DNA of 64,000 bases. It comes from Hyphomicrobiales bacterium. GTDB taxonomy: Bacteria > Pseudomonadota > Alphaproteobacteria > Rhizobiales > NORP267. The notes under the pieces were generated by a model. That model ran no database searches and was not told where the DNA came from. It saw only the letters and a program-made list of their open reading frames with translations. Of the stretch, positions 826 to 21,111 are shown one piece after another. Each line of letters starts with the position of its first letter. Within the stretch, counting starts at the first letter, position 1. The translations under genes and the position numbers were made by a program. The stretch spans positions 3,761-67,760 of the forward strand of contig JAJFGZ010000006.1 in the NCBI GenBank assembly GCA_021775855.1, given 5' to 3'.

Positions 826-2127
826 ATGAATAACCCAACACGGAAAAGAGGCATGCATCGCCGTGATTTTTTGTCTAGCACGGCGGCGATTACGCTCATG
901 GCCACGACCAGTTGGCCCAAAGTCGTATTTGGTGCGGAGGAGACCGTCAAGATTGGCTTTCTTGCTCCTTTGACGGGTCCCGTATCGGCATGGGGTAAAC
1001 CCGGTTTGGATGGTTGCCAAATCTGGGCTGACTGGGTCAACCAGGCTGGCGGTATCATGGTTGGCGGTCAAAGCCACAAGGTGGAGTTTATCGGCTATGA
1101 CAACGAATATGATGCCGGTAAGGCCCGCACCGGTGCGGCCAAACTGATCAAGGAAGATGGCGTCAAGTTTATCATGATGCTTGGTGGTGACACCTGGCCG
1201 GGCGTTCAGCCATTGGCTGCAAATGAGAATATGTTGGTATCGACCCTGCTGCCGTCTGATTTGACCCCGGAAACGGACATGCTGATTGCGCCGTGTGAAG
1301 TCCATCCAATTTACAATGTGACCGGTGTACAGTGGCTGGCGGAAAATTATCCTGATAAAAAGCGGGCCGTGATTTGCGCGCAGGACGATGCGTTGGGTAA
1401 ACCTTCGGTCGCGACTTATCTCGCCGCTTTCGAAGCAGCGGGAATCGAGGTTGTTGACGAGCCGTTGTTTTTTGATCCGGCCACCACTGACTTTGCCCCG
1501 GTTATGACCCGCCTGTTGTCGAGCGACCCGGATATTCTGTGTCTCGATACCAGCTACGCCGATTATGTGCATCCTTTGTGCGAACAGGCATTTCAACAGG
1601 ACTTCAAGGGAACCATTATTTCCTGTACAGCGGATTTCTACCCAAAGATTATCGAAAAAACCTCCAAGGAATTCATGGAAGGATTCATCTTCCAGTTCCC
1701 GGATTTCGATGACCCGGCGCTCAATGCGGATCAGGTTAACTTTCCGCGGCCAAACGAATTCTACGCCGAATACGCGAACCGGTACGGAGAGGCCGAATGG
1801 GGTGCTGTATCGTGGGAATATGCTTCGATCATGGACCTTTGGGCCGATGCTGCCATCAAGGCAGATTCGTTTGAGCCTGCCGACGTTCTGACAGCCATGA
1901 AAGATGGCGGCACCGGCAAGCATGCCTTTGGCGACGCCGATTGGTGGGGTGAAGAATTATTTGGTATCAACAATGCACTCGTGGGTGACTGGCCAGTGGT
2001 CGTCATCGAAGATGGCAAAGCTGTAATCAAAGAATACAAATCCATCCCGGCTTGGTGGGCGCAGCACAAGGATCTCCTGATCAAGCACTTCACTGATCTT
2101 GGCCAGATGTGGAATCAGCGTGGTTGA
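826..2127 (+). CDS. ABC transporter substrate-binding protein, branched-chain amino acid (LivK-like) family, Tat-exported
   Basis: RRDFL twin-arginine signal; VKIGFLAPLTGPVSAWG start of the PBP1 fold; followed by LivH/M/G/F-like genes; SD ggagg. Confidence 0.9.
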   Translation: MNNPTRKRGMHRRDFLSSTAAITLMATTSWPKVVFGAEETVKIGFLAPLTGPVSAWGKPGLDGCQIWADWVNQAGGIMVGGQSHKVEFIGYDNEYDAGKARTGAAKLIKEDGVKFIMMLGGDTWPGVQPLAANENMLVSTLLPSDLTPETDMLIAPCEVHPIYNVTGVQWLAENYPDKKRAVICAQDDALGKPSVATYLAAFEAAGIEVVDEPLFFDPATTDFAPVMTRLLSSDPDILCLDTSYADYVHPLCEQAFQQDFKGTIISCTADFYPKIIEKTSKEFMEGFIFQFPDFDDPALNADQVNFPRPNEFYAEYANRYGEAEWGAVSWEYASIMDLWADAAIKADSFEPADVLTAMKDGGTGKHAFGDADWWGEELFGINNALVGDWPVVVIEDGKAVIKEYKSIPAWWAQHKDLLIKHFTDLGQMWNQRG

Positions 2128-2167
2128 TTGGGTAATGTCGGGCGAATAGCACGCTTACCTCTTCTAA

Positions 2168-2199
2168 AACCGTTCCCCTTGTCGTAAAGGGGAACGGTT
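2168..2199 (+). terminator. 13-bp intercistronic hairpin (mRNA stabiliser or partial terminator)
   Basis: aaccgttcccctt-gtcgta-aaggggaacggtt perfect stem, no U tract, between binding protein and permease. Confidence 0.55.
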
Positions 2200-2250
2200 C
2201 CTCCTAGCCGGTTTCCCTATATTTGACCTGACGTGCGGTGCTATTTGGCC

Positions 2251-3120
2251 ATGTCCGAACTCATATTGCAGACAATCGTCAATTCCATTTACGCCGCCAG
2301 CTACATGTCGCTGATTGCTGTTGGGTTGGTTTTGATTTTCGGTGTGATGGGCGTTATCAATTTTGCACATGGCGAGTTGTATATGGCCGGAGCCTATACA
2401 GTCGTTGCGTTATATTCCGGGTTAAACCTTCCCTTTTTTGTTGCCGTGGTCGTCGGGATGGTTTTCGTTGGCCTTCTCGGGCTGGTGATGGAATATGCTT
2501 TCTTTCGAGCGTTAAGAGATAATCCGCTCGGTGGCCTGATCGCATCGATCGGGTTTTTATTGATATTACAGACAGTTGCTGTCCTCGGGTTTGGTGTGCG
2601 TATGGCTCATATCAGGCCATCGACGCAGGAAAAAATAGAGTTATTCGATGGCGTGTTGCTCACCCATCAACGCCTCTATGTGATTGTCGCGGCCATACTG
2701 CTTTTGACAGCGTTATATATTTTTTTGCGCAAGACCAAATTTGGCTGGGCCATGCGCGCCTGCGCCCAGGATACGGAAGCTGCGGCGCTACAGGGTATTT
2801 CTCTCAACCAGATCACGCGGATTGCTATGTTTATCGGTGCCGGGCTAGCTGGCGTTGTAGGCGCCTTGACCGCACCGCTTGTCAGTCCGACGCCCTATAT
2901 GGGGCATTCGATCATCGTCACTGCTTTCATCATTATCGTTGTTGGAGGCATCGGCCAGCTTGAAGGCGCGGTTGTGGCGGCCATCCTCTATGCGTTTGTG
3001 CATACTTTCGTGACTACATTCTTTGATGGTGTGGTCGCGGATATGGTTGGATTGGTGTTGATGCTCCTTGTGTTGGTGGTCAAGCCAACCGGATTGTTTG
3101 GAGCCAACGATCGTGTCTGA
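2251..3120 (+). CDS. ABC permease, LivH-like
   Basis: SLIAVGLVLIFGVMGVINFAHGELYMAGAY and TKFGWAMRA motifs; ATG 2251 preferred. Confidence 0.9.
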   Translation: MSELILQTIVNSIYAASYMSLIAVGLVLIFGVMGVINFAHGELYMAGAYTVVALYSGLNLPFFVAVVVGMVFVGLLGLVMEYAFFRALRDNPLGGLIASIGFLLILQTVAVLGFGVRMAHIRPSTQEKIELFDGVLLTHQRLYVIVAAILLLTALYIFLRKTKFGWAMRACAQDTEAAALQGISLNQITRIAMFIGAGLAGVVGALTAPLVSPTPYMGHSIIVTAFIIIVVGGIGQLEGAVVAAILYAFVHTFVTTFFDGVVADMVGLVLMLLVLVVKPTGLFGANDRV

Positions 3121-4117
3121 CAGCAAGACTACTATAACCGTGTGGATCTTTGCGTTGACATTGCTTGCAGGATTGCTGGTTTTGCCGCAGCTGCTTTCCT
3201 ATTCGCAGCGAGAAATTGCTGTATTTTTGATCATCAACGTTTTGCTCGTGGTTTCATATCGCTTGATGACGCTGACCGGGGAATGGTCGCTTGGTCATGT
3301 GGTGATAATGGGTGTTGGTGCCTATGCCAGCGCGTTGTTCTCCAAACGGTTGGGTGTGCCTGTGCCGCTCTCCATGTTTCTCGGTGCGAGTACGGCCGGA
3401 TTGACGGCGGTGGTCCTCAGTTTCCCGCTATTCCGCATGAAGGGGTTCTATTTCCTGATCGGGTCCTTCGCAGCTGGAGAGGTAATACGGCTGATCTGGA
3501 AATATTTTACATTTCCGTTTGGCGGCGCAAAGGGTTTGAATCTGATTCCCTCGTTCCCTGACATTGGCTGGATTTCGTTCTTTGATCCCGTAAACTATTA
3601 TTACCTTTGCCTGATTGTCGTGTCGGTAAGCCTGTTCATCCTGTACCGCGTTGAGCGCTCTCGTTTTGGCCTAACATTCCATGCTTTGCATTGGCAGGAC
3701 AAATTGGCAGAATCGGTTGGCGTGAATACCTTCCGGTATCGCATGCTGGCCTTTACATTGGCGTCGTTCTTCGCGGGCTTGTCCGGCGCGCTTTACGCGC
3801 ATTATATTGGCACCGTTAATCCGACACGCTTTGACGTGGAGGAAATGGTCTATGTTTTAATCTGGGCGATTGTCGGCGGGACAGCAACTTTCTACGGTCC
3901 AATCGTTGGTGTAGTGGCGTTGACCATCGTCAACGACGTCCTCCTGCGCGCTCTGGGTTTTGATACGATCCGGCCCATGATTTATGGTGCGGTTCTTATA
4001 GCCTCGGTGTTGTTTATGCCGGATGGTCTCGAGAGCATTTTTCCAAAACTCAAACGCCTGATGATGGGCAGGAAGACTGAGCCGGCGACGAAATCTGAAG
4101 CGGGGGAAATCCCATGA
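3113..4117 (+). CDS. ABC permease, LivM-like
   Basis: GEWSLGHVVIMGVGAY, RMKGFYFLIGSFAAGE, SRFGLTFHAL motifs; GTG overlaps upstream stop. Confidence 0.9.
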   Translation: MSDSKTTITVWIFALTLLAGLLVLPQLLSYSQREIAVFLIINVLLVVSYRLMTLTGEWSLGHVVIMGVGAYASALFSKRLGVPVPLSMFLGASTAGLTAVVLSFPLFRMKGFYFLIGSFAAGEVIRLIWKYFTFPFGGAKGLNLIPSFPDIGWISFFDPVNYYYLCLIVVSVSLFILYRVERSRFGLTFHALHWQDKLAESVGVNTFRYRMLAFTLASFFAGLSGALYAHYIGTVNPTRFDVEEMVYVLIWAIVGGTATFYGPIVGVVALTIVNDVLLRALGFDTIRPMIYGAVLIASVLFMPDGLESIFPKLKRLMMGRKTEPATKSEAGEIP

Positions 4118-4884
4118 CCCAACCGATCCTGGAGGTCTGTGATCTGTCGCGAAATTTTGGCGGCTTGTTGGCAGTAAACCAGCTTAGCTTCTCGGTCATA
4201 CCGGGCACAATCCATGGGATCATCGGCCCCAATGGTGCCGGTAAAACCACCACATTCAATGTGATCAGCGGGTTCTATGCACCAAGCAGCGGCCATGTGA
4301 CCTATCTGGGCAAAGACATATCCGGCATACGGACGGACAGGCTGGCCGAAATTGGTCTGATCCGCACCTTCCAGGGCACAACGCTGTTCAACGAGTTTTC
4401 AGTGATCGACAATGTTCGGCTCGGCTGCCACGTATCCGCCAAGTCTGGATTTTTAAGCCGCCTTTTAGGTGCTGACCGCGAATCTGAAGCGGTGGCGACA
4501 AAAAAAGCCGAGGATTTGCTGGCCTTTTTTAATCTTAGCGATCTGCGTGACGAGGAGGCGTCGAACCTTCCCCACGGCCACCAGCGTGCGTTGGGCATGG
4601 CGGTGGCATTGGCGGCCGATCCTAAAATACTCCTGCTGGATGAACCGTTCACGGGCATGAACCCGGAAGAAACGGCGCGGATGATGACACTTACCCGGGA
4701 TATCCGTGACCGCGGTATTACGGTCATGCTGGTCGAGCATGACATGCAGGCAGTAATGGGTTTGTGCGATATGATTACGGTCATGAATTTTGGATCGCTG
4801 CTTACCGAAGGCACGCCGAAAGAAGTGCGTACAAATCCTGGTGTGATCGAAGCCTATCTCGGGAGTGCCCACCATGCTTCTTGA
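4114..4884 (+). CDS. ABC ATP-binding protein, LivG-like
   Basis: Walker A GPNGAGKTT, LPHGHQR signature, LLLDEP Walker B, C-terminal VIEAYLG. Confidence 0.92.
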   Translation: MTQPILEVCDLSRNFGGLLAVNQLSFSVIPGTIHGIIGPNGAGKTTTFNVISGFYAPSSGHVTYLGKDISGIRTDRLAEIGLIRTFQGTTLFNEFSVIDNVRLGCHVSAKSGFLSRLLGADRESEAVATKKAEDLLAFFNLSDLRDEEASNLPHGHQRALGMAVALAADPKILLLDEPFTGMNPEETARMMTLTRDIRDRGITVMLVEHDMQAVMGLCDMITVMNFGSLLTEGTPKEVRTNPGVIEAYLGSAHHAS

Positions 4885-5581
4885 GATCAAAGATATCCAT
4901 GTGCATTACGGAAAAATCGCCGCGCTAAAGGGTGTTTCCATGGAGGTGCCGGAAGACGGAATTGTGACCATCATCGGTGCCAATGGCGCGGGCAAGAGCA
5001 CCACATTGCGTGCCATTTCGGGTCTTAGCAAAATATCCGCTGGTGAAATCTGGTTCGATGGCGAGCGTATTGACGCGCTCCCGCCAGAGAAAATTGTAGC
5101 CTGCGGCATCGCCCAGGTGCCGGAAGGCCGGCGCGTCTTTCCTGATCTTAGCGTAGAGGAAAATTTGCGCACAGGGGCGTTCTTGCGGAATGACAGGGTT
5201 GAGATTGATCACAGCCTGGAGCAGGTTTTTACACGATTTCCACGTCTAAAAGAGCGACGCAGCCAATGGGCGAAGACCCTTTCCGGCGGTGAGCAGCAAA
5301 TGGTGGCCATTGGCCGGGCTTTGATGTCGAAACCGCGCCTACTATTGCTGGATGAGCCGTCCATGGGTCTTGCGCCGGTAATAATTCAGGAGATTGTTCG
5401 TATCCTCGAAGATATCGTCGCTGATGGTGTGCCGGTTGTTCTGGTCGAGCAAAATGCGGAATTGGCGCTTTCTCTTGCCCGATACGCGTATGTATTGGAA
5501 ACTGGCTCGGTATCATTGGCCGGGATTGCAGAGGATTTGCATGAAAATGATCACGTCAAGAAAGCCTATCTAGGTGGCTGA
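4874..5581 (+). CDS. ABC ATP-binding protein, LivF-like
   Basis: GANGAGKST, LSGGEQQM, LLLDEPSMGLAP, VKKAYLGG. Confidence 0.92.
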   Translation: MLLEIKDIHVHYGKIAALKGVSMEVPEDGIVTIIGANGAGKSTTLRAISGLSKISAGEIWFDGERIDALPPEKIVACGIAQVPEGRRVFPDLSVEENLRTGAFLRNDRVEIDHSLEQVFTRFPRLKERRSQWAKTLSGGEQQMVAIGRALMSKPRLLLLDEPSMGLAPVIIQEIVRILEDIVADGVPVVLVEQNAELALSLARYAYVLETGSVSLAGIAEDLHENDHVKKAYLGG

Positions 5582-6190: not shown

Positions 6191-7060
6191 CTATACGTCC
6201 CGCATCAGGTCGCGCTGTACGTCGGTAATATGGAGCTTGATAAACTCGACCGCGCTTTCGATATCGCGCGTACGGATCGCTTTATAGAGCGATTGGTGTC
6301 TCTTTTTATATTCTCTGATACGGTTTGGTGAGAGGGTTTTTTGGCGATTTTCCACGCCTGAAGAATCGCGCCGTACGATGATTACCATTTTGTAGAGCGA
6401 GCTCAGCAATGGATTATGGACGCCGGCCGCAAGGCACAGGAACAGCTCTTCGTCGCAGCGAGAGAATGCCGTCGCATCTGTGCTGATCATCTCCATGCGC
6501 TCGATGATTTTGCCCATTTTTGAGATATCTTTGTTGGACATATTGATAACAGCAAGTCTGGCTATTTCCGGCTCAAGTATGGACCGGACGACATTGAGTT
6601 CCAAAGGACTGGTCATCTGCGCCGTTTCGGCTATATCGATTGTTAGGCCGTCATCCGCTTCTATGATGGTTTCAAGATTATTCGCGACAGGGAATTCTCC
6701 GGCATTTTGCGCTGGTTCGGGTTGATTGTGGAAGCTTATAAATGTGCCACTACCAGGTCGCCGCGCAATAAGGCCAGAATCTTCCAGAATATCCAATCCT
6801 CTCCGTAATGTTGTTCGCGATACCGCAAACTCTTCGGCCAAATGACGTTCGGCCGGTAATCGCTCGCCATCGGTAAATTCCCCGATCAGGATGCGGGCGC
6901 CAAGTTTAAGTGCCAAAGATTTTGCAACGCCTCCCGAGTAATCCTGTAGCCCACCTGCATCCAGAGATTTCTGGACCGTCTTCAGCAATGTCTCGTTCAA
7001 GGCGAAGTCCTCCTTGCCTGCCAACAGGCGTGGGGAATGATTGGTGGACCAATTCGCCAC
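6191..7060 (-). CDS. GntR-family (FadR subfamily) transcriptional regulator; true start may lie downstream of 7060
   Basis: wHTH RLPAERHLAEEFAVSRTTLRRGLDILEDSGLIARRPGSGTF plus C-terminal FCD-type domain (LNVVRSILEPEIARLA...GVHNPLL). Confidence 0.9.
   Translation of the reverse strand: MANWSTNHSPRLLAGKEDFALNETLLKTVQKSLDAGGLQDYSGGVAKSLALKLGARILIGEFTDGERLPAERHLAEEFAVSRTTLRRGLDILEDSGLIARRPGSGTFISFHNQPEPAQNAGEFPVANNLETIIEADDGLTIDIAETAQMTSPLELNVVRSILEPEIARLAVINMSNKDISKMGKIIERMEMISTDATAFSRCDEELFLCLAAGVHNPLLSSLYKMVIIVRRDSSGVENRQKTLSPNRIREYKKRHQSLYKAIRTRDIESAVEFIKLHITDVQRDLMRDV
7040..7053. promoter_or_regulatory. FadR-subfamily-type palindromic operator
   Basis: ATTGGT-GG-ACCAAT perfect 6-bp inverted repeat at the 5' end of the regulator; weaker copy TTTaGT-AT-ACCAAA at 7235-7248. 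Confidence 0.55.
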
Positions 7061-7460: not shown

Positions 7461-9647
7461 ATGCCACGTGACCCAAAACATGATTGTTTGTTTGAGCCGA
7501 TAAAAATTGGCCCAAAGACAATGAAAAATCGGTTTTATCAAGTGCCCCATTGCATTGGTGCCGGCTCTGAAAAGCCTGGGACTCAAGCGCTTAATCGCGG
7601 CATGAAAGCTGAAGGTGGATGGGGTGCTTGCAACACCGAATATTGCTCGATCAGCCCTGAATCTGACGATACTCATCGTGTTTCCGCCCGCATTTGGGAT
7701 GATGGAGATGTAATTAATCTGCGCTATATGAACGACACCCTGCACAAGCATGGCTGCCTGGGCGGTATAGAAATGTGGTATGGCGGCCCGCATGCGCCAA
7801 ATCTGGAATCCCGCGCCGTTTCACGCGCGCCAAATGGTACCGCCTCTGAATTTGAATATCTGACCTATTCTCACGAGGCCGATGAAGACGATATCAAGGA
7901 CCTGATTAAACTCTATGGCGAGGCTGCAAAGCGCGCGGAACAGGCAGGGTTTGACATTGTCTATGTTTATGGCGGTCACTCCTACCTGCCACTCCAGTTC
8001 CTCTCACCGTTTTTTAATAAGAGGACCGACGGATACGGCGGCTCGTTGGAAAACCGGGCCCGCTTCTGGATCGAGGCCTTAACCGAGGTCAAAGAGGCTG
8101 TCGGCAGCACTTGCGCAATCGCCACCCGGCTTGCGATCGATACCCTTTATGGTCCTGGTAGCCTGGAAGTTGCTGACGATGGCCTGAAATTTGTTGAATT
8201 GGTCGCCAAGGAAGGTGTGCTGGATCTTTGGGACGTCAATATCGGCGATATCGCTGAATGGGGCGAAGATGCCGGACCTTCACGGTTCTACAAGGCTGGC
8301 CATCAACGGGCATGGACCAACGAAGTCAAGAAAATTTGCGACATCCCCGTGCTTGGCGTTAGCCGTGAAACCAGCGCTGACGATATGGCGGCTCATATAA
8401 CCTCCGGTCGTCTCGATATTATAGGCGCCGCACGTCCGTCAATTTCGGACCCGTTCCTCCCAAACAAAATTGACGAAGGCCGTATTGAGGATGTACGGGA
8501 ATGCATTGGCTGCAATGTTTGCATTTCTCGTTGGGAAATTGGCGGCCCGCCAATGGTCTGCACCCAGAACGCAACGGCAAACGAGGAATATCGCCGCGGC
8601 TGGCACCCTGAATCTTTCAACGCCGTCAAAACCGAAGAGTCGGTTCTGGTGGTTGGCGCTGGTCCTGCGGGTATGGAATGCGCCCGCGTCCTTGGCGAAC
8701 GCGGTTATGACGTGCATTTGCGTGAAGCCAGCAGCGAAATTGGTGGCTGCGTCAAGGATATCATGCGTTATCCCGGCCTGTCGGAATGGGGCCGCATTAC
8801 CTCCTACCGTCAGATCCAGTTGGACAAGCTGAAGAATGTAGAAGTCCATACCGGTGTAGGCGAAATGTCGGCGGATGATGTCCTGGAATATGGCGCCGAC
8901 AAGGTTGTCATTGCGACCGGGTCGCATTGGTCAACGACCGGGCTCAATTCTGTCAGCCACGATCCCGTCGAAGGGCTGGATGCGAGCAAGCCGTACATCT
9001 GCACACCAGAACAGGTGTTTCAGAAGAAAGAAGTCGGCAAGCGGGTTTTGGTGATCGATGGCGACGGGTATTTCACCGGCATCTCAATGGCTGAAATGCT
9101 GGTCGATCAGGGCAAGGAAGTGAATTTGGTCACTTCACTTGGCTCCGTTGCGCCTTACACGCACTTTACCCTCGAAGCGCCAAACTTGCACCGCATGATG
9201 TATGAAAAAGGTATCCACGAGAAAACCCTGCATTGGGTAGAGAAGGTAGAGGAGGGCGTTGCTACAATCTATTATCTCTATCGCGATGGATATAAGCGTG
9301 ACTCTGGCCCGACGCTCGGCAAAATGCCGCGTAGGGAAGGTACCGATGTCATCAAGATGGAATTCGATACCCTGATTTCTGTCACCGGACGGGTGCCCAA
9401 TGATCAGCTGTTTCGCGAGTTGCGGGCCCGTAAATCCGAATGGGAAGACAACGAAATCAAAGGCATTTATGCAGTTGGTGATTGTTATGCACCAGGTCTT
9501 TTGGCGGATGCGATTTTCTCTGGACATCGTATCGCGCGGGAATTCGAATCGAAGAATCCGCAGCATGCCCAGCCATGGATCCGTGAACGACAGGTTTGGG
9601 GCCATGAGACCTATCCCAAAATCAGCGATCGGGAGGTTCTCGGTTAG
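7461..9647 (+). CDS. tmd: Trimethylamine dehydrogenase (6-S-cysteinyl-FMN, 4Fe-4S, ADP-binding)
   Basis: Colinear with recalled Methylophilus TMADH: RDPKHD start, VPHCIG (flavinylated Cys30), TEYCS (Tyr60), VYVYGGHSY (Tyr169/His172), AEWGED (Trp264), CIGCNVCISRWEIGGPPMVC (4Fe-4S Cys, Trp355), VVGAGPAG. Confidence 0.9.
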   Translation: MPRDPKHDCLFEPIKIGPKTMKNRFYQVPHCIGAGSEKPGTQALNRGMKAEGGWGACNTEYCSISPESDDTHRVSARIWDDGDVINLRYMNDTLHKHGCLGGIEMWYGGPHAPNLESRAVSRAPNGTASEFEYLTYSHEADEDDIKDLIKLYGEAAKRAEQAGFDIVYVYGGHSYLPLQFLSPFFNKRTDGYGGSLENRARFWIEALTEVKEAVGSTCAIATRLAIDTLYGPGSLEVADDGLKFVELVAKEGVLDLWDVNIGDIAEWGEDAGPSRFYKAGHQRAWTNEVKKICDIPVLGVSRETSADDMAAHITSGRLDIIGAARPSISDPFLPNKIDEGRIEDVRECIGCNVCISRWEIGGPPMVCTQNATANEEYRRGWHPESFNAVKTEESVLVVGAGPAGMECARVLGERGYDVHLREASSEIGGCVKDIMRYPGLSEWGRITSYRQIQLDKLKNVEVHTGVGEMSADDVLEYGADKVVIATGSHWSTTGLNSVSHDPVEGLDASKPYICTPEQVFQKKEVGKRVLVIDGDGYFTGISMAEMLVDQGKEVNLVTSLGSVAPYTHFTLEAPNLHRMMYEKGIHEKTLHWVEKVEEGVATIYYLYRDGYKRDSGPTLGKMPRREGTDVIKMEFDTLISVTGRVPNDQLFRELRARKSEWEDNEIKGIYAVGDCYAPGLLADAIFSGHRIAREFESKNPQHAQPWIRERQVWGHETYPKISDREVLG

Positions 9648-9782: not shown

Positions 9783-12700
9783 GTGGAAACGCGTGAATTA
9801 TTCTGGTCCCTGAAAACGCCCTCGGTGGTGGTTTTCTATGCTTTTGGGCTTGCTACGATTGCATTATTTATTTGGGGTTGCTGGAGGCATTACGCGAAAT
9901 ATCGACGCGGCACGGCCCCGGTCACTGCCATTGATCTGATCGCTGGGGTCAGACGAATGGTTGCCGATTTGATAACCCATCGCACGCTTGTGCGCCGCGA
10001 TAAGTATGCTGGCTATGCCCATGCCGGGATTTTCTTCGGCTTTGTCATCGCTGCGCTCGGCACCGCCACCATCACACTTGAATATGATATTCTCGAGCCG
10101 CTGTTCGGGATCACGTTCTGGCATGGGGATTTCTACCTCTTGTTCAGCTTGCTCCTCGACCTTGGTCATTTGGCGCTATTTCTCGGGCTCCTGATGATGA
10201 TTGTCCGCCGCTTGTTTTTCAGTCTGGACAAGCTTGACTATCGACGCAGCTACAGAGGGGATAGTGAACTTCGAACGTCAGCAAAAACATGGCGTATTGA
10301 AGACTGGATATTCTTATCCACTCTGCTGCTGATCGAGATAACCGGGTTTGTTCAGGAGGCTGTCCGCCTGCTTATGGATAAACCTGAATGGGCCTCATGG
10401 TCTCCGGTTGGATTGTTGCTGGCGAACGGGTTTGCAGTCCTTGGCATGTCTGATGCCACGGCTGCCGCGATCCGCGGTGCTAATTGGTGGATCCACGGCG
10501 TGCTGGCGCTCGCATTTACTGCGGCCATTCCCTGGTACAAGGCCAAGCACATCATCGCCGTGGTCGGTTCGCTGGCGATGCGTGCTGAAAAACCTCTTGC
10601 CCGTTTGACGCGAGAAGGTGAAGCCCGGCAAAGTAGCGGGATTGCCGATGTCTCGCAGTTTTCCTGGAAAGACATGTTGAATTTCGACGCCTGCACAAAG
10701 TGCGGGCGGTGTCATGAAGCGTGTCCTGCGCAGATTGCCGGATTTCCCTTGAGCCCGCGCGACTTTATTCTCGATCTGCGCACCCACAATGACAAAATGC
10801 AGGGCCGTCCGGATGAAGCGGTTCAGCTTATTGGCGATATCATCGCCCCTGAGACTTTGTGGGCGTGCCGTATGTGTGGGGCGTGTCAGGAAATTTGTCC
10901 TGTTGGAATCGAGCATCCGGCGATCATCGTACAAATGCGCCGCCAATTGGTGGAGCGTGGCGACATGGACCCGCTACTGCAAGGAACCCTCGATACCATT
11001 GCAAGCACCGGTAACAGTTTTGGCGAAAGCGCGCGCAAACGCAGCGCCTGGACGCGCGAACTGGAATTCAAGGTCAAAGATATTCGCGAAGTGGCCGCAG
11101 AAAACCTCTGGTTCGTTGGAGACTATGCGTCTTTCGACCCGCGCAACCAGCAGGTTAGTCGCGCTTTTGCCTCCCTGATGAAACACACCAAAACCGATTT
11201 TGCACTGCTGCATGAAGGCGAACGCAATGCCGGCAATGATGTTCGACGGGTTGGTGAAGAGGGGCTTTTTGAAACCCTGGTCGAGAGCAATTTACAGGCA
11301 ATGACCGGCGTCAAACAATTTTCAAAAATAATTACAACCGACCCCCACAGCTACAATACGATTAAAAACGAATATCCGGAATTCGGTGATGTTGCGCCTA
11401 TCGAACATTATACTTCGATCCTTGATGACCTCCTCAAATCCGGTCGGTTGAAGGTCACCAAGCCGCTCAGCAAGAAAGTGACGTTTCACGATCCGTGCCA
11501 TCTTGGCCGGTTGAATGGTGGCTATGATGCGCCACGCCACGTACTGGAAGCTATCGGCTGTGAAATTGTCGAGATGCCGCGCAACCGCGACAATTCGTTT
11601 TGCTGCGGTGCCGGGGGAGGGCGTATCTGGATTCCCGATCCGCCTGGAAAAGAAAAGCCATCCGAAAATCGTATGCGCGAGGCAGCAGGTCTCGGTGGCA
11701 TCGACATTTTTGTGACCTGCTGTCCAAAGGACCTGACCATGTTCGAAGACGCGCGTAAAACCAGCGGCCACGAAGCCGATTTTCTAGTCCGGGATATCGC
11801 CGAACTGGTGGCCGAAGCTATTGAGTTGAACGAGATTTCGCTGCAGGACATGCCATCGCTTGCCGAGCGTATTACAGACGCCGTGGCGACCCGCGTCGCA
11901 GATGTAGTTGGCGCCCGTCTGGAGAACGTACTTTCTTCCAAACTAGATGGGTTGGCCAGTATACCAGCGCCTGCCAAACCTGCCGAAATTCCTTCGGAAC
12001 CTAAGGAACCATCATCCACCACTCCAGAAACTGTGCAGGCGCGTATCACAGCGCCTGAAGTCGATGAGGATGTGCAGACTTCCACCCCAGAAGCGGAATT
12101 GCCGGCGTTGACAGCGATGGATTGGGACAGCCTGGCCCCTGTGCGTCTGGTCCCGTATGAGGGGTATGAGGCACCTGAGAAATCAACTTTGCGTATTTTG
12201 GTGACGGTGAAACACACAGCAAAACTCGGCGATGAATATGAATTTACAGCTGATACACGCGATGTGGCCGGGGAGTATCTTGAATACGATCTAAATGAAT
12301 GGGACGACGCGGCGTTGGAACAGGCGTTGCTTCTTGTAGAGGCCCATGGTGACGGCGAAGTGGTTGCTGTTTCGGTTGGTCCCGAAGAAGTTGAAAAGTC
12401 CCTCCGCAAGGTTCTCGCCAAGGGCGCCGATCGGGCGGTGCGTATCTGGGACGATAGGCTTCGGATCGCCGATCCGGTGACCATTGCCCGAGCAATTGCT
12501 GGCGTTGCCGCTGCTGAGCAACCTGACCTGATTTTAACGGGGACACAGTCTTCAGACCATGCTCACGGCTCTACTGGCACGGCGCTGGCACGTATTCTCG
12601 ATCTTCCCCATAGCTCGGTTATCGTCGAAGTCGAGCCGCAAGACGAGGGCGTCATCAACGTGACCCGCGAACTTGAAGGCGGAACCCGTCACGTGCTGCA

Positions 12701-12956
12701 GATGTCGATGCCTGCGGTCCTCGCTATCCAGACCGGAACCAACACACCGCGCTATGCGACGATGCGGATGATCAAACAAGCCAAGAAGAAGCCTCTTGAC
12801 GTGCTCGATGGTGCGCCAATTGTCGATGGATCCGGGGGGTACCGGGTACGACGCATGTACACCCCGATTCAGGAAAAGGCACAAATGCTCGAAGGGTCGG
12901 CGGAAGAGGTTGCGGCAAAAGTCGCCGAGCTTATCCGCGACATTAGGGGAGAATAA
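9783..12956 (+). CDS. Membrane heme-b/Fe-S oxidoreductase (FadF/EMO-like: TM domain, 2x4Fe-4S, CCG domains) fused to electron transfer flavoprotein beta subunit
   Basis: TM helices with His in YAHAGIFFGF, WWIHG, KAKHI; CTKCGRCHEACP and CRMCGACQEICP; FHDPCHLGR...FCCGAGGG; P/E/T-rich linker; from ~12189 ETF-beta (RILVTVKH, YDLNEWDD, LAKGADRAVRIWD, GTQSSD, RELEGG, PRYA). Confidence 0.88.
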   Translation: METRELFWSLKTPSVVVFYAFGLATIALFIWGCWRHYAKYRRGTAPVTAIDLIAGVRRMVADLITHRTLVRRDKYAGYAHAGIFFGFVIAALGTATITLEYDILEPLFGITFWHGDFYLLFSLLLDLGHLALFLGLLMMIVRRLFFSLDKLDYRRSYRGDSELRTSAKTWRIEDWIFLSTLLLIEITGFVQEAVRLLMDKPEWASWSPVGLLLANGFAVLGMSDATAAAIRGANWWIHGVLALAFTAAIPWYKAKHIIAVVGSLAMRAEKPLARLTREGEARQSSGIADVSQFSWKDMLNFDACTKCGRCHEACPAQIAGFPLSPRDFILDLRTHNDKMQGRPDEAVQLIGDIIAPETLWACRMCGACQEICPVGIEHPAIIVQMRRQLVERGDMDPLLQGTLDTIASTGNSFGESARKRSAWTRELEFKVKDIREVAAENLWFVGDYASFDPRNQQVSRAFASLMKHTKTDFALLHEGERNAGNDVRRVGEEGLFETLVESNLQAMTGVKQFSKIITTDPHSYNTIKNEYPEFGDVAPIEHYTSILDDLLKSGRLKVTKPLSKKVTFHDPCHLGRLNGGYDAPRHVLEAIGCEIVEMPRNRDNSFCCGAGGGRIWIPDPPGKEKPSENRMREAAGLGGIDIFVTCCPKDLTMFEDARKTSGHEADFLVRDIAELVAEAIELNEISLQDMPSLAERITDAVATRVADVVGARLENVLSSKLDGLASIPAPAKPAEIPSEPKEPSSTTPETVQARITAPEVDEDVQTSTPEAELPALTAMDWDSLAPVRLVPYEGYEAPEKSTLRILVTVKHTAKLGDEYEFTADTRDVAGEYLEYDLNEWDDAALEQALLLVEAHGDGEVVAVSVGPEEVEKSLRKVLAKGADRAVRIWDDRLRIADPVTIARAIAGVAAAEQPDLILTGTQSSDHAHGSTGTALARILDLPHSSVIVEVEPQDEGVINVTRELEGGTRHVLQMSMPAVLAIQTGTNTPRYATMRMIKQAKKKPLDVLDGAPIVDGSGGYRVRRMYTPIQEKAQMLEGSAEEVAAKVAELIRDIRGE

Positions 12957-12958
12957 TC

Positions 12959-13924
12959 ATGGCAGGTATCCTTGTCGTTGCGGAGCAACTGGATGGCGCA
13001 TTACGCGATATTTCGTCGGAATTGATTGGTGCGGCTAATTCCATCAAAGGTGAAATTGATGGACCACTTCAGGTGTTGATCGTTGGTCAGAATGTCGAAG
13101 ACCTCGCCAACAAGATCAATCTGGATGGTATCGATGATATTTTTACGCTGGAAATGCCCGACAATCATTTCGATCCGCTGGTATATGAAGAAGCCATCTG
13201 CAGCCTGGGTGCAGATCTGAAACCGGGCATCATTCTCATCGGCCACACCGTCAGTGGAATGGGTTACGGCGCGGCTGTTGCGGCGCGGCTTGGGTCCGGT
13301 TTTGCCAGCGACGTGATTGCTCTTGCGATGGACGGGGACGATCTCGTCGCCACCCGCAGTGCCTATGGCAACAAGGTGGAGATGGAGTTGGGTTTCCCCG
13401 GCAAGGGCGTTGTCGTGCTCACACTACGCGGCGCCACGTTTGCACCGCCGGAGGGTGATGGGAACGCAAAAATTTCACCGGCCGAAATCGATCTGACAAT
13501 GCTGGAAGGCGTTTCGACTCATGTGGAATTTCAGGAGGCCCCGCCGTCCGACATTGATATAACCAAGGCCGATTTCATCCTCTCGGTGGGACGCGGTATT
13601 CAGGATCAGGATAACCTGCCGCGCTTTGAAGCACTTGCCGATAAACTCGGCGCTACCTTTGGCTGCTCGCGGCCAATTGTCGATGCGGGATGGTTGCCAA
13701 AACCCCACCAGGTTGGCCAGTCGGGCAAAGTCGCTTCAAATTGCCAACTTTATTTTGCCCTCGGTATTTCAGGTGCAGTCCAACACCTGTTCGGAATGAA
13801 GCATATCGATACCATTATCGCGGTCAATACCGACCCCGATGCGCCCATTTTCAACGTGGCAACTTACGGCACCACCATCGATCTGTTTGAACTGACTGAT
13901 GCGTTGGAGCGCCACTTCAACTGA
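12959..13924 (+). CDS. etfA: Electron transfer flavoprotein alpha subunit
   Basis: ILVVAEQ start; SVGRG, GCSRPIVDAGW, QVGQSGK, GISGAVQHLFGM, IAVNTDPDAPIF FAD-binding motifs. Confidence 0.95.
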   Translation: MAGILVVAEQLDGALRDISSELIGAANSIKGEIDGPLQVLIVGQNVEDLANKINLDGIDDIFTLEMPDNHFDPLVYEEAICSLGADLKPGIILIGHTVSGMGYGAAVAARLGSGFASDVIALAMDGDDLVATRSAYGNKVEMELGFPGKGVVVLTLRGATFAPPEGDGNAKISPAEIDLTMLEGVSTHVEFQEAPPSDIDITKADFILSVGRGIQDQDNLPRFEALADKLGATFGCSRPIVDAGWLPKPHQVGQSGKVASNCQLYFALGISGAVQHLFGMKHIDTIIAVNTDPDAPIFNVATYGTTIDLFELTDALERHFN

Positions 13925-13960
13925 CAATTCAACAACCACCAATAGATAAGGGAGACTAAA

Positions 13961-15061
13961 ATGAACGAAGGTACCCGACACTCCGTACTCGCTGATCGCC
14001 ACCGCGCGCTTGGTTCTGATCTTGGTGACTGGAACGGAATGGGCGTCGCGTGGGACTATGCCAGCGACCCATGCGATGAGCACGATGCGGTGCGCACCGC
14101 CGCCGGCCTGTTCGATGTTTCTGGCCTGAAAAAGGTATTCGTACAGGGTCCCGATGCTGGTGCCGTTGTGGATCATGTTATCACGCGAAATATGAAAGTT
14201 ATCACCCCCGGACGCTCGGCCTATGGTCCGAACCTGACCGAACAGGGAACTATTTGCGACGATGCGATTGTCTTTAACCTGGGTGGTGGCAAATGGATGG
14301 TCGTGCATGGATCGGGAAGTTGCATGGAGATGCTGCAAGAATCGGCAGCCGGCAAAAACGTCGATATCGAATTCGACGACGATCTCCACGACATTTCATT
14401 GCAGGGACCGAAATCTACCGAATTCCTCAATGCGCATACTCCATTCGATCTGGCCGGCCTGAAATATTTTCATCAGGAAGAGACCGAATTGTTCGGTCAT
14501 CCGGTGATTATTTCTCGCACCGGGTATTCAGGTGAACGGGGGTACGAGATATTCGCCGGGGCGGATCGTGTAGGCGATATCTGGGATCAGATTATTGGCC
14601 AGGGTAAGGCCGAAGGCATCATGCCATGTTCTTTCACCTGCCTCGACAAAATCCGTGTCGAAGCGGCCCTGTTATTTTACCCATACGACATGACCGAGGC
14701 GAACAGCCCATGGGAAGTTGGTCTTGGCTGGGCAATCACGACCAAAGGTGACGATTTTCGTGGTCGTGCAGCGGTCATGGATCTCAAGGGCAAGGAAAAG
14801 ATCAAGGTCGTTGGTATTAGCGCCGATCATGACGGTATTCTTGCTGGCGAAGAAAAACTGAAGCTGGATGGCAAGGAGGTTGGCGTTGTCAATTCTCCAG
14901 CCTATTCTCATCGCATGAAAAAATCTCTTGCTCTTGCACATGTTACGCCGGACGCAGCCGCACCCGGCACTCAGCTGCGTGTAGAAGGGGATATTTCCTG
15001 CGATGCGATAGTTGAAGCAACGCCTTTCTATGACCCGGATAAAACCCGGACCCATGGATAA
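13961..15061 (+). CDS. Stand-alone aminomethyltransferase (GcvT/T-protein family, folate-binding)
   Basis: GLFDVSGL, DDAIV, ISLQGPKS, SRTGYSGERGYEI, DKIRVEAALLFY, SLALAHV, TPFYDP; no gcvH/gcvP in the window. Confidence 0.88.
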   Translation: MNEGTRHSVLADRHRALGSDLGDWNGMGVAWDYASDPCDEHDAVRTAAGLFDVSGLKKVFVQGPDAGAVVDHVITRNMKVITPGRSAYGPNLTEQGTICDDAIVFNLGGGKWMVVHGSGSCMEMLQESAAGKNVDIEFDDDLHDISLQGPKSTEFLNAHTPFDLAGLKYFHQEETELFGHPVIISRTGYSGERGYEIFAGADRVGDIWDQIIGQGKAEGIMPCSFTCLDKIRVEAALLFYPYDMTEANSPWEVGLGWAITTKGDDFRGRAAVMDLKGKEKIKVVGISADHDGILAGEEKLKLDGKEVGVVNSPAYSHRMKKSLALAHVTPDAAAPGTQLRVEGDISCDAIVEATPFYDPDKTRTHG

Positions 15062-15117: not shown

Positions 15118-16500
15118 ATGAACGCATTGGACACGGCCAGGGCCAGGTATCGGGCCAACAGTGTCAGATGGGGTTATATCTGGGCGCTGTGGTGCGCTGT
15201 TTTGTGGGGCATCTGGTATATTCCAGGCACCGCGCTGTGGAGCGAGGCGCCCTACAGCACTATGAGTTTCGATACTACGGGCGAGTTATTGCTCAGCGCT
15301 GCCGTGATAACCGCGTTTAGCGCCGTCAGCGTGCTGATTTTCCTGTTTATATGGCTGGCGGTGCTGGAGAAATTTGGCGAATTCCGGCGAACCGTGAAAC
15401 GATTTTCTTCGATCTCCAAATGGTATTTTTTGGCTGCCATTTTTGGCGGTCCTTGTGCTCTTTTCGGGGCTTACCTTGCTATCGGATTTGTAGGGCCGAT
15501 CTTTGCGGCCGTCGCCTCGCTGCTTTACCCTATTGTCGGGGCTACGCTTGCCCGATTGTGGTACAATGAGATCATTACCCAGCGTGCTGCCATCGGCATC
15601 GGCTTGATCGTTACCAGCGGCATTGCGATCTTTTTGCCCGGGTTATTCTCTGAATCCGCCGGTGCCGGAGATACAGCGTGGATCGGCTATCTCGGCGGTG
15701 CTGTGTCGGCAATTGGGTGGGGGTTTGAGGGCGCAATTGTCGGTCGCGCACTCGATGTATCCGACGCCGATGTTGGCATTACCATTCGTTTTACCGCCGA
15801 GGTCCTGTTCTGGGTTTTTCTGATACTCCCCGCCGCGGTAATATTTTTTGACGCCCCTGTTATCCCTGTGGCGTTGGCAACGTTTAATTTTTGGGCCATC
15901 ATCTGGGTCTTGCTCGCAGGCCTCAGTTATGGGTTTTCCTATGTTGCCTGGTATAAATCGTTCCCGCTGATCGGCGTTGGGCGCGGGCAGGCAATCGCTG
16001 CGCTGCATACTGTTTTTGCAGTTGTCTTCCTCGCCGTTTTTGCTTTTCAATTCCCGAGCTGGAATTTTCTTGTCGGACTGGCGCTCGCCGTGGCGGGCAC
16101 TTTTTTAATGGTCAGTGAAGATAGCAAGGTAGTCGAAGTGGTGCGACAGCCTCCTGCAAAAGAATTGACGGCCCGCACTCGCAGAAACAAGACTGCGTGT
16201 GTGTCGAAGGGTGGCCTGCACATGAAAGGTTACATATTGAGATTGCTGATGGAAGCCGGAGAGTCAGGGGTCTGGGATTACGAGATCATGACTTCGGTAT
16301 TTGCCGAATATGGTTACAGCGGAAGCTATTGGAAGGGCGAAGTTCGCGCTACCCTGACAGATCTTTATTCAGGTGCGCTGATCGAGGAAATAGAAGACGA
16401 TCTCGATGATGGCGGGTCATTTGGAATTGGTAAGATCCTGATAAAATTCAGGATAAGCGCATTTGGCACCCAGCGCATTGCCGAAACCGGCCTGATATGA
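15118..16500 (+). CDS. DMT-superfamily permease resembling methanogen MttP, with a fused ~90-aa soluble C-terminal domain
   Basis: About 10 hydrophobic segments; WALWCAVLWGIWYIPGT, GWGFEGAI, WYKSFPLIGVGRGQ match my recollection of MttP; hydrophilic domain from in-frame ATG 16222. Confidence 0.75.
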   Translation: MNALDTARARYRANSVRWGYIWALWCAVLWGIWYIPGTALWSEAPYSTMSFDTTGELLLSAAVITAFSAVSVLIFLFIWLAVLEKFGEFRRTVKRFSSISKWYFLAAIFGGPCALFGAYLAIGFVGPIFAAVASLLYPIVGATLARLWYNEIITQRAAIGIGLIVTSGIAIFLPGLFSESAGAGDTAWIGYLGGAVSAIGWGFEGAIVGRALDVSDADVGITIRFTAEVLFWVFLILPAAVIFFDAPVIPVALATFNFWAIIWVLLAGLSYGFSYVAWYKSFPLIGVGRGQAIAALHTVFAVVFLAVFAFQFPSWNFLVGLALAVAGTFLMVSEDSKVVEVVRQPPAKELTARTRRNKTACVSKGGLHMKGYILRLLMEAGESGVWDYEIMTSVFAEYGYSGSYWKGEVRATLTDLYSGALIEEIEDDLDDGGSFGIGKILIKFRISAFGTQRIAETGLI

Positions 16501-19479: not shown

Positions 19480-21111
19480 ATGGGTGAACAAAAGACGATA
19501 GCAACGGATGTTCTCGTGATCGGCGGTGGCGCGGCTGGCAACGCGGCAGCATTAACCGCCTCTGAAGCCGGCGTCAGGGTTACACAATTATACAAGGGGC
19601 CAGCAACGTCAGCGATTTCGACTGGGTTTCTGACTTTTCCCGTGGAAGACCGGTTCGATCGCGCTCAGCTTGAAGATTCGTTGCTCAACGTTACCGGAAA
19701 AGGGTTGTGTGACCGTGCGTTGATGAACCGTTTCCTTGCTGAAAGTCCGAAAGAAATAGAGGCCGCCATCGCGCAATACGGGATTCCGGTTGACGATGTT
19801 CCTCGCGGAGTGCGTGCGCGGCGCGCTATTGGGCGACGTGGCAGGGAGCTTGTGGGCGAGGATTATAGTGTCGAGGGGGTCAACGACATGACGTCCGTGG
19901 TGATGGAATTTTCCGCGACCCATGGAACTTCCCTTTTTTCTGGTAGTCTTAAGGCGGTTTTGGCGGAATCAATCCAACGCATCAAAGGCGCGGCGCTCAA
20001 AATATCGCCCGACGGATCATCCGTTGTTGCGTTGATTGAAGGTGAATTTGTCTGGATTTCCGCGAATGCCGTTATTCTGGCGACCGGCGGGGTTCAAGGC
20101 CTTTATGAATTCACGGACAATCCACCAAGTCTGATTGGCGATGGCCACACGATGGCGCTGGAAGCCGGTGCGGCTTTGACAGATATGGAGTTCATTCAGT
20201 TCTACCCGCTCGCGCTTGCCGAGGAGGGCGCTCCGGCGATTTTCATCTACCCGGATTTTCCGCCCGGGGGGCGCATCGTCAACGGTGCGGGAATAGACAT
20301 TCTGCAGAAGCATTTCGACGGGGCTAAAACTCTGGGAGAATTCGATAACTGGGACTATTTGTCGGTCATCCTGCAGCAGGAGATCATGACAGGGCAGGAT
20401 GTCTATATCGATTTTTCCGGTACCGATCCGGGCGAATGGAATGTTAGTTCGCTGACAAAGCTGTTTCTCGACAAATATGCCCCGGATTACATGAAGCGGG
20501 TGATCCGGGTTTCACCCATTGCGCACTACACGATCGGTGGGGTGCGTACGAATGCCGAATGCGAAACTGCTGTGGCCGGTCTCTATGCAGTTGGCGAGGT
20601 GGCTGGGGGGTTGCACGGCGCAAATCGTCACGGAGGCGTTGCCCTGGCCGAGAGCGTAACTTTCGGGCGGATCGCGGGTCGGAACGCTGCCGCGCGGGTT
20701 AAACGGCATGATCCAGCGCCATTTATTGATGATTCATTTGAACAGAACAAATCAGGCAGAGCGTTCGATCCCAGAGATGTCATGCCTGCTTTGCGCCGAC
20801 TGTGTCAGACCGCGCTGGGACCGCTACGCGATGGCTCTGACCTCAGGGTGATGGAGCGGAAGCTGGTTGAATTGGGTGATGAAGCGGAGGAATTCGGTTG
20901 GGACTATCCTTCAGAATATGCCGCCATTTTAGCCTACAAGCGATCATTGATGCTGACCGGAATCATGCGACGTTTTATGCTAAACCGGGCAGAAAGCCGA
21001 GGTGTTCATTTCCGCCGCGACTATCCGGAAGTTAGCAACGAATGGCTGGTGAAGCAGGTGATGATTTTAGGCGATGACAAAAAGCCGATTTTCGAGAATG
21101 TGCCAGTATAA
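19480..21111 (+). CDS. FAD-binding oxidoreductase of the NadB/SdhA/FrdA flavoprotein family with non-canonical active site
   Basis: DVLVIGGGAAG, VILATGG, GDGHTMALEAGA, DMEFIQF, HYTIGG, GLYAVGE, HGANR, RAESRGVHFRRDYP; QFHPT replaced by QFYPL. Confidence 0.8.
   Translation: MGEQKTIATDVLVIGGGAAGNAAALTASEAGVRVTQLYKGPATSAISTGFLTFPVEDRFDRAQLEDSLLNVTGKGLCDRALMNRFLAESPKEIEAAIAQYGIPVDDVPRGVRARRAIGRRGRELVGEDYSVEGVNDMTSVVMEFSATHGTSLFSGSLKAVLAESIQRIKGAALKISPDGSSVVALIEGEFVWISANAVILATGGVQGLYEFTDNPPSLIGDGHTMALEAGAALTDMEFIQFYPLALAEEGAPAIFIYPDFPPGGRIVNGAGIDILQKHFDGAKTLGEFDNWDYLSVILQQEIMTGQDVYIDFSGTDPGEWNVSSLTKLFLDKYAPDYMKRVIRVSPIAHYTIGGVRTNAECETAVAGLYAVGEVAGGLHGANRHGGVALAESVTFGRIAGRNAAARVKRHDPAPFIDDSFEQNKSGRAFDPRDVMPALRRLCQTALGPLRDGSDLRVMERKLVELGDEAEEFGWDYPSEYAAILAYKRSLMLTGIMRRFMLNRAESRGVHFRRDYPEVSNEWLVKQVMILGDDKKPIFENVPV

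Follow-up and report, generated by a model that had tools for sequence, protein, structure and literature searches.

Trimethylamine dehydrogenase (TMADH) is the classic amine dehydrogenase releasing free formaldehyde: trimethylamine (TMA) is oxidized to the dimethyl-iminium ion, which is hydrolyzed to dimethylamine (DMA) and formaldehyde, and the pathway maps send the carbon of TMA to formaldehyde-handling routes. A folate-binding module with the fold of the glycine cleavage T-protein (GcvT) is already known in amine demethylases, being fused in dimethylglycine oxidase (DMGO), dimethylglycine dehydrogenase (DMGDH), the sarcosine oxidase SoxA and TMAO demethylase (Tdm), and free-standing in the form of DmmD, the accessory subunit of dimethylamine monooxygenase (R. 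pomeroyi SPO1579, M. silvestris Msil_3605, P. aminophilus pAMI6). Here we analyze a stand-alone T-protein-like (T-like) gene located in the TMADH operon of a Hyphomicrobiales bacterium (assembly GCA_021775855.1; the stretch of 64,000 nucleotides from contig JAJFGZ010000006.1 is hereafter referred to as the window). Judging by its sequence, the product of this gene is closely related to DmmD and to the folate domain of Tdm and represents a DmmD-type module. The new element is TMADH as the partner of such a module, as no literature linking TMADH with a GcvT- or DmmD-type protein was found in the searchable library.

Among the modules of the DmmD/Tdm type, the formation of methylene-tetrahydrofolate (methylene-THF) from enzyme-derived formaldehyde has been shown for Tdm only, in which formaldehyde from the Zn site tunnels to the T-domain and becomes methylene-THF (PMC13619132). 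For DmmD, the reaction of formaldehyde with THF yielding methylene-THF has been proposed; Dmm activity in E. coli does not depend on the protein, which is required for growth of R. pomeroyi on TMA, trimethylamine N-oxide (TMAO) and DMA, and affects growth in Methylocella and P. aminophilus (PMC5520151, PMC4543880). Like DmmD, the window protein has a stand-alone GcvT fold of about 370 aa and is encoded in the operon of a formaldehyde-releasing methylamine demethylase, but the partner of DmmD is the NADPH-dependent monooxygenase DmmABC acting on DMA, whereas that of the window protein would be TMADH, linked to electron transfer flavoprotein (ETF) and acting on TMA. The C-terminal domain of Tdm (Paracoccus TDM, PDB 9Q59/9Q5A) resembles the window protein in its pocket residues, the YDPxK tail and the sister position in the tree; it is fused to a DUF1989 Zn catalytic core and fed by the tunnel, whereas the window protein is a separate polypeptide. 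The T-domains of DMGO, DMGDH and SoxA trap iminium- or formaldehyde-level carbon from an amine-oxidizing flavoenzyme, as we propose for the window protein, but they form part of FAD amine oxidases, either as fused domains or as subunits, and are more distant in sequence than DmmD and Tdm. Finally, the cloverleaf fold of three domains and the catalytic Asp, Tyr and Glu of the folate site are common to the window protein and GcvT itself (E. coli 1VLO/3A8I, T. maritima 1WOO, human 1WSV); GcvT differs in the association with gcvH/gcvP, the Arg residue known as R233 in the human enzyme, the SHM motif and the separate clade.

The T-like gene starts with ATG and encodes 366 aa, matching the Pfam profiles GCV_T, over the full length of the profile (residues 10-258, E = 3.4e-67), and GCV_T_C (residues 282-358, E = 4.2e-13). 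The AlphaFold2 model, computed from an alignment of 42 homologs, had a mean pLDDT of 91.1 and a TM-score of 0.91 with the T-protein of T. maritima (1WOO), which confirmed the full T-protein fold noticed in an earlier note on the letters of the window. Fold comparison did not separate the T-fold subfamilies, TM-scores of 0.83-0.91 being obtained for all of them with a library containing no Tdm entries. The position of the gene 36 nt downstream of the etfA stop codon and the Shine-Dalgarno sequence in front of it, both pointed out in the same note, were found as described, the Shine-Dalgarno-like AGGGAG lying 6 nt before the ATG. Because no promoter-like or terminator-like sites were detected in the gaps on either side, the T-like gene is likely to be co-transcribed with the flanking genes of the operon.

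By score, the best NCBIfam match of the protein was PRK00389 of the GcvT subfamily (235.6 bits against a cut-off of 300), with TIGR00528 and PRK13579 giving 196.4 bits (cut-off 235.85) and 159.5 bits (cut-off 459), respectively. The C-terminal half of the TMAO demethylase model scored 223 bits, near the 236 bits of GcvT; the DmdA model PRK12486 scored 136 bits against a cut-off of 410, and the LigM and DesA models 48 and 58 bits. In all, the protein fell under the cut-off of every GcvT, Tdm and DmdA model of NCBIfam. No curated NCBIfam model covers the DmmD-like clade, and its members are named in the databases 'aminomethyltransferase family protein' or 'glycine cleavage T protein'; the clade gives annotators a handle on these generically named proteins. 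Pairwise comparison showed 49% identity to the DmmD of Rhizobium johnstonii pRL11 (WP_011655280), the gene of which immediately precedes dmmA, dmmB and dmmC within a tmm/tdm/gmaS island, 30-32% identity to Tdm C-terminal domains (165 bits over the entire domain), 25-33% across the GcvT references and 25% to the GcvT of the source genome (3.14 Mb, 56% G+C, 94% complete). All homologous cluster representatives with at least 44% identity were 366-379 aa long, and the longer ones were Tdm-like or carried other N-terminal extensions.

In maximum likelihood trees (LG+C20; support is given as ultrafast bootstrap/SH-aLRT) with the fused T-domains of DMGO/DMGDH and SoxA as the outgroup, the window protein fell within a long-stemmed clade (100/99) of stand-alone proteins of 363-378 aa. 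This clade comprises the dmmABC-linked DmmD and two TMADH-linked groups, a clade from Betaproteobacteria and a grade from Alphaproteobacteria; the latter contains the window protein, the subclade of which is sister to the dmmABC-linked DmmD sequences. The C-terminal domain of Tdm appeared as the sister of the DmmD-containing clade (98/92); canonical GcvT proteins (E. coli, B. subtilis, T. maritima, source genome) were located outside the DmmD/Tdm grouping, and so was DmdA. Identity with DmdA was thus rejected, in view also of the low score and of a separate DmdA-like gene on contig C42 of the source genome (390 bits); grouping with DmdA or LigM, which the earlier note had named as the outcome contradicting its proposal, was not seen. 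DmmD in the strict sense, i.e., a subunit of DmmDABC, was likewise rejected, since dmmABC is missing from the source genome and the protein belongs to the sister subclade. The gene had been called an orphan in the earlier note; this does not hold, as it represents the known DmmD-type family with a new partner.

The residues of the folate site agree with this placement. Human GcvT contacts THF by M56, D101, Y197, E204 and R233; only R233 is GcvT-specific, the others belonging to the canonical set of THF-binding T-folds (PMC9551070). Their equivalents in the window protein are L56, D100-D101, Y189 and E196, all invariant or nearly so among the 42 homologs, with L228 at the position of R233. All four GcvT references possess Arg at this position, as well as the SHM motif, whereas the window protein has L228 and SGL56, the stretch TCLD being equivalent to the GARD motif of the human enzyme. 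Leu or Ile occupies the R233 position in Tdm, DmmD, SoxA and all members of the DmmD clade (Leu in DmmD and SoxA), and DMGDH has Met there. In the THF pocket of Paracoccus Tdm, cryo-EM revealed R480, K782, F582 and F672 (PMC13619132), which align with R76, K361, F170 and W257 of the window protein, respectively. R76 and the C-terminal YDPxK tail, to which the C-terminal FDP motif of SoxA is similar, are common to Tdm, DmmD and the alphaproteobacterial members of the clade but not to GcvT, in which the R480 position is taken by N or G and the sequence ends before the tail; in the betaproteobacterial members, Ile or Val stands in place of R76 and Arg in place of K361. As judged from these alignments, the one-carbon/folate site of the window protein is intact and the Arg specific to GcvT has been lost.

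The presumed source of the C1 unit is encoded upstream in the same operon. The product of 7461-9647 gave 963 bits with the TMADH of M. methylotrophus (1DJN) across 715 residues and keeps the VPHC cysteinyl-FMN site (Cys30), Tyr60, Trp264, Trp355 and the 4Fe-4S motif CxxCxxC...C, in line with the operon assignment of the earlier note. Ten of the 21 relatives of the T-like gene in the species-representative genome collection, all from Alphaproteobacteria and 61-84% identical, sit in a TMADH cluster, usually in the order tmd - FeS/etfB - etfA - T-like - permease; in one of the ten clusters the T-like gene is transposed and lies on the other strand beside an ABC transporter. The same cluster, with etfB as a separate gene, is present on plasmid IV of the cultured methylotroph Paracoccus aminovorans JCM 7685, the T-like ortholog of which is WP_074966983. 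In a class sample of 401 evenly drawn genomes, with both proteins counted at no less than 57% identity, the TMADH-type enzyme was found in 7 genomes and the T-like protein in 9; five of the seven TMADH genomes, belonging to five different families, also had the T-like gene, always within about 6 kb (Fisher's exact p = 3e-8, shared ancestry being ignored). A phylum-wide sample of 401 genomes added one further TMADH genome only and was too sparse for a comparison of methylotrophs of the ribulose monophosphate type. One of the two TMADH copies in genome G048 stands without a T-like gene.

Outside Alphaproteobacteria, tmd is immediately preceded by a homolog of 41-42% identity in Azoarcus sp. KH32C and Paraburkholderia phymatum. 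Besides the present TMADH operon, the linkage was seen at some 20 other alpha- and betaproteobacterial loci or genomes; gene order varies across the TMADH clusters while the linkage persists, and in the tree the TMADH linkage lies at the base of both the alphaproteobacterial grade and the betaproteobacterial clade. No gcvH or gcvP was found beside the T-like gene in the syntenic loci. The co-oriented cluster of Cupriavidus oxalaticus, T-like-dmmA-dmmB-dmmC-tmd-FeS-etfB-etfA, begins with a single homolog, which suggests one folate module for both demethylation steps. As a separate observation, dmmABC adjoins the TMADH-FeS-ETF genes in Betaproteobacteria at two loci, on a plasmid of C. oxalaticus (L059:10143-21742) and on pBPHY01 of P. 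phymatum (L057:7700-21849).

Since its nearest characterized relatives, Tdm and DmmD, handle formaldehyde-level carbon, the window protein is probably a DmmD-type accessory THF-binding protein which serves TMADH and captures its formaldehyde as methylene-THF. According to the mechanism that we propose, the electrons of TMADH would leave via ETF-alpha and the fusion of ETF-beta with the membrane Fe-S protein; the T-like protein would bind (poly)glutamyl-THF in the cloverleaf cavity, and its conserved Asp (D100/D101) would condense the formaldehyde-level carbon with THF to 5,10-methylene-THF. The C1 unit of TMA would thereby enter folate metabolism rather than diffuse as free formaldehyde, the T-like protein either docking on TMADH or acting on locally released formaldehyde. 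We infer TMADH-derived formaldehyde, or the iminium, to be the substrate and methylene-THF to be the product. The trans-acting T-domain coupling the C1 unit of TMADH to THF, as suggested in the earlier note, is the reading best supported by the comparative evidence, i.e., the linkage, the kinship with DmmD and Tdm and the intact folate site, although the relatives linked to MttB-family and EamA genes (see below) leave room for another activity. The second option of that note, processing of the downstream DMA or methylamine carbon, found no support: dmmABC (tblastn of the whole source genome with Rhizobium DmmA, DmmB and DmmC), tmm, tdm and a second enzyme of the TMADH/DMADH type were not detected in the 94% assembled genome, gmaS being the only gene found. 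With no gene seen for its conversion to methylamine, DMA may be excreted.

Several observations weigh against the proposed role. The complete genome G300 carries three TMADH-type genes and no T-like gene, and on the TMADH replicon of Shinella none was found within 14 kb on either side. No fusion of the T-domain to TMADH or ETF was present in the 150 best cluster representatives. Condensation of formaldehyde with THF also takes place spontaneously, and the source genome encodes a glutathione-dependent formaldehyde dehydrogenase. FTHFS and PurU were not found in the 94%-complete assembly, so that capture by THF would feed biosynthesis rather than an evident folate-linked oxidation. The subclades linked to MttB-family and EamA genes (57-64% identity) are nested inside the TMADH-linked grade, and there is no TMADH near the homologs of Desulfobacula (69% identity) and of genome G094 (70%). 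As no obvious formaldehyde source was seen in any of these four contexts, the family may have a broader or different activity, e.g., acceptance of methyl groups.

Fae was also looked for, and not found, in the source assembly. The use of Fae and tetrahydromethanopterin as a substitute in TMADH genomes without the T-like gene was considered and dropped as non-discriminating: Fae was absent from all eight genomes tested, almost all of which carry the glutathione-dependent formaldehyde dehydrogenase.

The contexts without TMADH, which form the strongest caveat, speak for the explanation that the T-like protein is a THF-dependent enzyme with a substrate of its own, for instance carrying out DmdA-like methyl transfer from a methylated amine or from an MttB-family partner to give 5-methyl-THF, its place in the operon reflecting a shared methylamine C1 pathway. 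At seven loci (L039:10436-13083; L053:6426-9095; L055:6492-9119; L041:7407-10010; L042:5519-8162; L043:1570-5319; L022:2110-4743) T-like genes whose products are 56-64% identical to the window protein stand next to a non-pyrrolysine MttB-family gene (PF06253), usually in the order LysR-MTTB-GCV_T. They form a monophyletic subclade (100/99) and come from Leisingera plasmids (Roseobacters), three other alphaproteobacterial genomes, Gammaproteobacteria (Oceanospirillaceae) and one Acidimicrobiales genome. No corrinoid- or B12-binding protein was found within 8 kb of these pairs, which might represent a corrinoid-independent MttB:THF demethylase; no relevant paper on the pairing of MttB and GcvT-type genes was found. 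A second subclade (100/100), flanked by EamA genes, belongs to Gammaproteobacteria of the SUP05/Thioglobus type. The nesting of both subclades in the TMADH-linked grade, together with the Desulfobacula and G094 homologs, favors an independent substrate. The other evidence speaks for the methylene-forming type: the window protein is far from DmdA and LigM both in sequence and in the tree, it keeps the Asp-Asp, Tyr and Glu set of methylene-forming T-domains and the pocket residues specific to Tdm, and TMADH linkage is basal to both the alphaproteobacterial grade and the betaproteobacterial clade. Besides, no precedent is known for THF accepting a methyl group from a neutral tertiary or secondary amine. 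On balance, a substrate of its own appears doubtful for the window protein.

Two features of these relatives are recorded in their own right. In Gammaproteobacteria of the SUP05/Thioglobus type (L034:8126-12017 from Ca. Thioglobus autotrophicus; L023-L026) a 60% identical T-like gene is flanked by three EamA-family transporter genes, and no TMADH, Dmm, Tdm or MttB genes were found near the T-like genes of the Thioglobus type. The G094 homolog (L044:10376-13640) is the only T-like gene of the TMADH clade found without TMADH. About 3 kb beside it has a G+C content of 43-48% versus 52-57% around, and this segment yielded neither an open reading frame longer than 120 aa nor any Rfam match or remnant of a TMADH cluster.

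It is less plausible that the T-like protein acts as a general folate-dependent scavenger or buffer of formaldehyde, induced with any methylamine pathway, without docking on TMADH or preference for it. This explanation differs from that of a TMADH-serving module in specificity alone, and it is in line with the occurrence of the family in four contexts (Dmm, TMADH, MttB-family genes and EamA transporters), with the Cupriavidus copy heading a combined dmmABC-tmd cluster and with the lack of TMADH fusions among the representatives inspected. On the other hand, the tight operonic placement maintained through rearrangements suggests stoichiometric co-expression, and the homologous domain of Tdm obtains its formaldehyde by a closed tunnel (PMC13619132), all of which makes the general scavenger improbable.

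That the T-like protein is a second genuine glycine cleavage T-protein, with the H-protein encoded elsewhere and an incidental position in the operon, is hardly credible: it would account for the full T-protein fold, PRK00389 as the top NCBIfam match and a second GCV_H homolog on contig C48, but the protein scored under all GcvT cut-offs, is only 25% identical to the product of the genome's own gcvT, has L228 and SGL in place of the GcvT Arg and SHM, lies outside the GcvT clade (98/92) and is conserved with TMADH rather than with gcvH/gcvP. The window contains no gcvH or gcvP, as stated in the earlier note, the canonical gcvT of the source genome adjoining gcvH on contig C69, where the other GCV_H match is located. 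The T-like gene is an extra paralog in a genome with its own gcvT, in which two SoxA-type and two DMGDH-type T-fold proteins are encoded in addition to the DmdA-like one.

Should the window protein and its counterparts in marine and soil Alpha- and Betaproteobacteria serve TMADH as accessory THF modules, carbon from TMA would pass straight into the folate pool, growth on TMA would entail less formaldehyde stress than has been assumed, and the three aerobic demethylation steps (Tdm, Dmm and TMADH) would have one homologous module of C1 capture in common. The idea extends the proposal made for DmmD and the demonstration made for Tdm, and is useful rather than surprising. A bolder version, which we regard as unlikely, would have a complex of TMADH and the T-like protein take over the iminium or formaldehyde carbon directly, the DmmD-like clade being a portable folate module employed by at least four unrelated machines: Tdm (fused), DmmABC, TMADH and the corrinoid-less non-pyrrolysine MttB. 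If such a complex forms, the textbook 'free-formaldehyde' TMADH would be a THF-coupled demethylase in these bacteria, and the MttB pairing would represent an undescribed corrinoid-independent MttB:THF system.

Table 1. Features of the window discussed in the text.
Feature	Position	Strand	Basis
Putative DmmD-like stand-alone T-protein, predicted THF-binding GcvT fold, 366 aa	13961..15061	+	PF01571+PF08669, AlphaFold2 model, tree, residues
Shine-Dalgarno-like AGGGAG, 6 nt 5' of the ATG of the T-like gene	13944..13949	+	sequence reading
Trimethylamine dehydrogenase (TMADH), 728 aa, presumed C1 source	7461..9647	+	963 bits to PDB 1DJN
Membrane Fe-S/CCG oxidoreductase (DgcB/EtfD-like) fused to ETF-beta, 1057 aa	9783..12956	+	Fer4 dicluster, CCG, ETF domains
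ETF-alpha	12959..13924	+	PF01012+PF00766
DMT/EamA-type permease with C-terminal small domain (MttP-like), co-conserved downstream	15118..16500	+	PF00892
Liv-type ABC importer (substrate-binding protein, two permeases, two ATPases), travels with the cluster	826..5581	+	Pfam
GntR/FCD regulator, divergent from the TMADH operon	6191..7060	-	PF00392+PF07729

The neighbors of the TMADH and T-like genes (Table 1) are retained to different extents. Synteny of the permease gene is kept in L013, L015, L017, L018 and L019, and its counterpart is represented by two separate genes in P. aminovorans, Azoarcus and Cupriavidus; the Liv-type importer is syntenic in L014, L015, L017, L019, L021, L045 and L051, and the GntR/FCD regulator in L013, L018 and P. 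aminovorans. The product of 9783-12956 gave partial NCBIfam matches to EtfB, TfrB and QmoC. The fusion of ETF-beta with a membrane Fe-S oxidoreductase in this protein is a lineage-specific feature; the corresponding region of P. aminovorans, Azoarcus, Cupriavidus and P. phymatum is split into three genes, which code for an Fe-S protein (about 720 aa), a hypothetical protein (about 460 aa) and EtfB alone (L038:6598-10976; L056:16408-20799). On the 3' side of the locus, at 19480-21111 of the window, an SdhA/NadB-like flavoprotein is encoded, with an 81% identical paralog at C21:1976-3604 of the same genome.

An MttB-family gene in the classical corrinoid context is present elsewhere in the source genome (contig C34:90516-98331). 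Its neighbors, assigned by sequence reading, are genes for a B12-binding protein with DxHxxG, a DUF-type small protein, an MTHFR-like protein, a pterin-binding MeTr-like methyltransferase and a RACo/RamA-like activase, so the locus looks like a complete MtgB-type system of quaternary-amine demethylation in an aerobic alphaproteobacterium.

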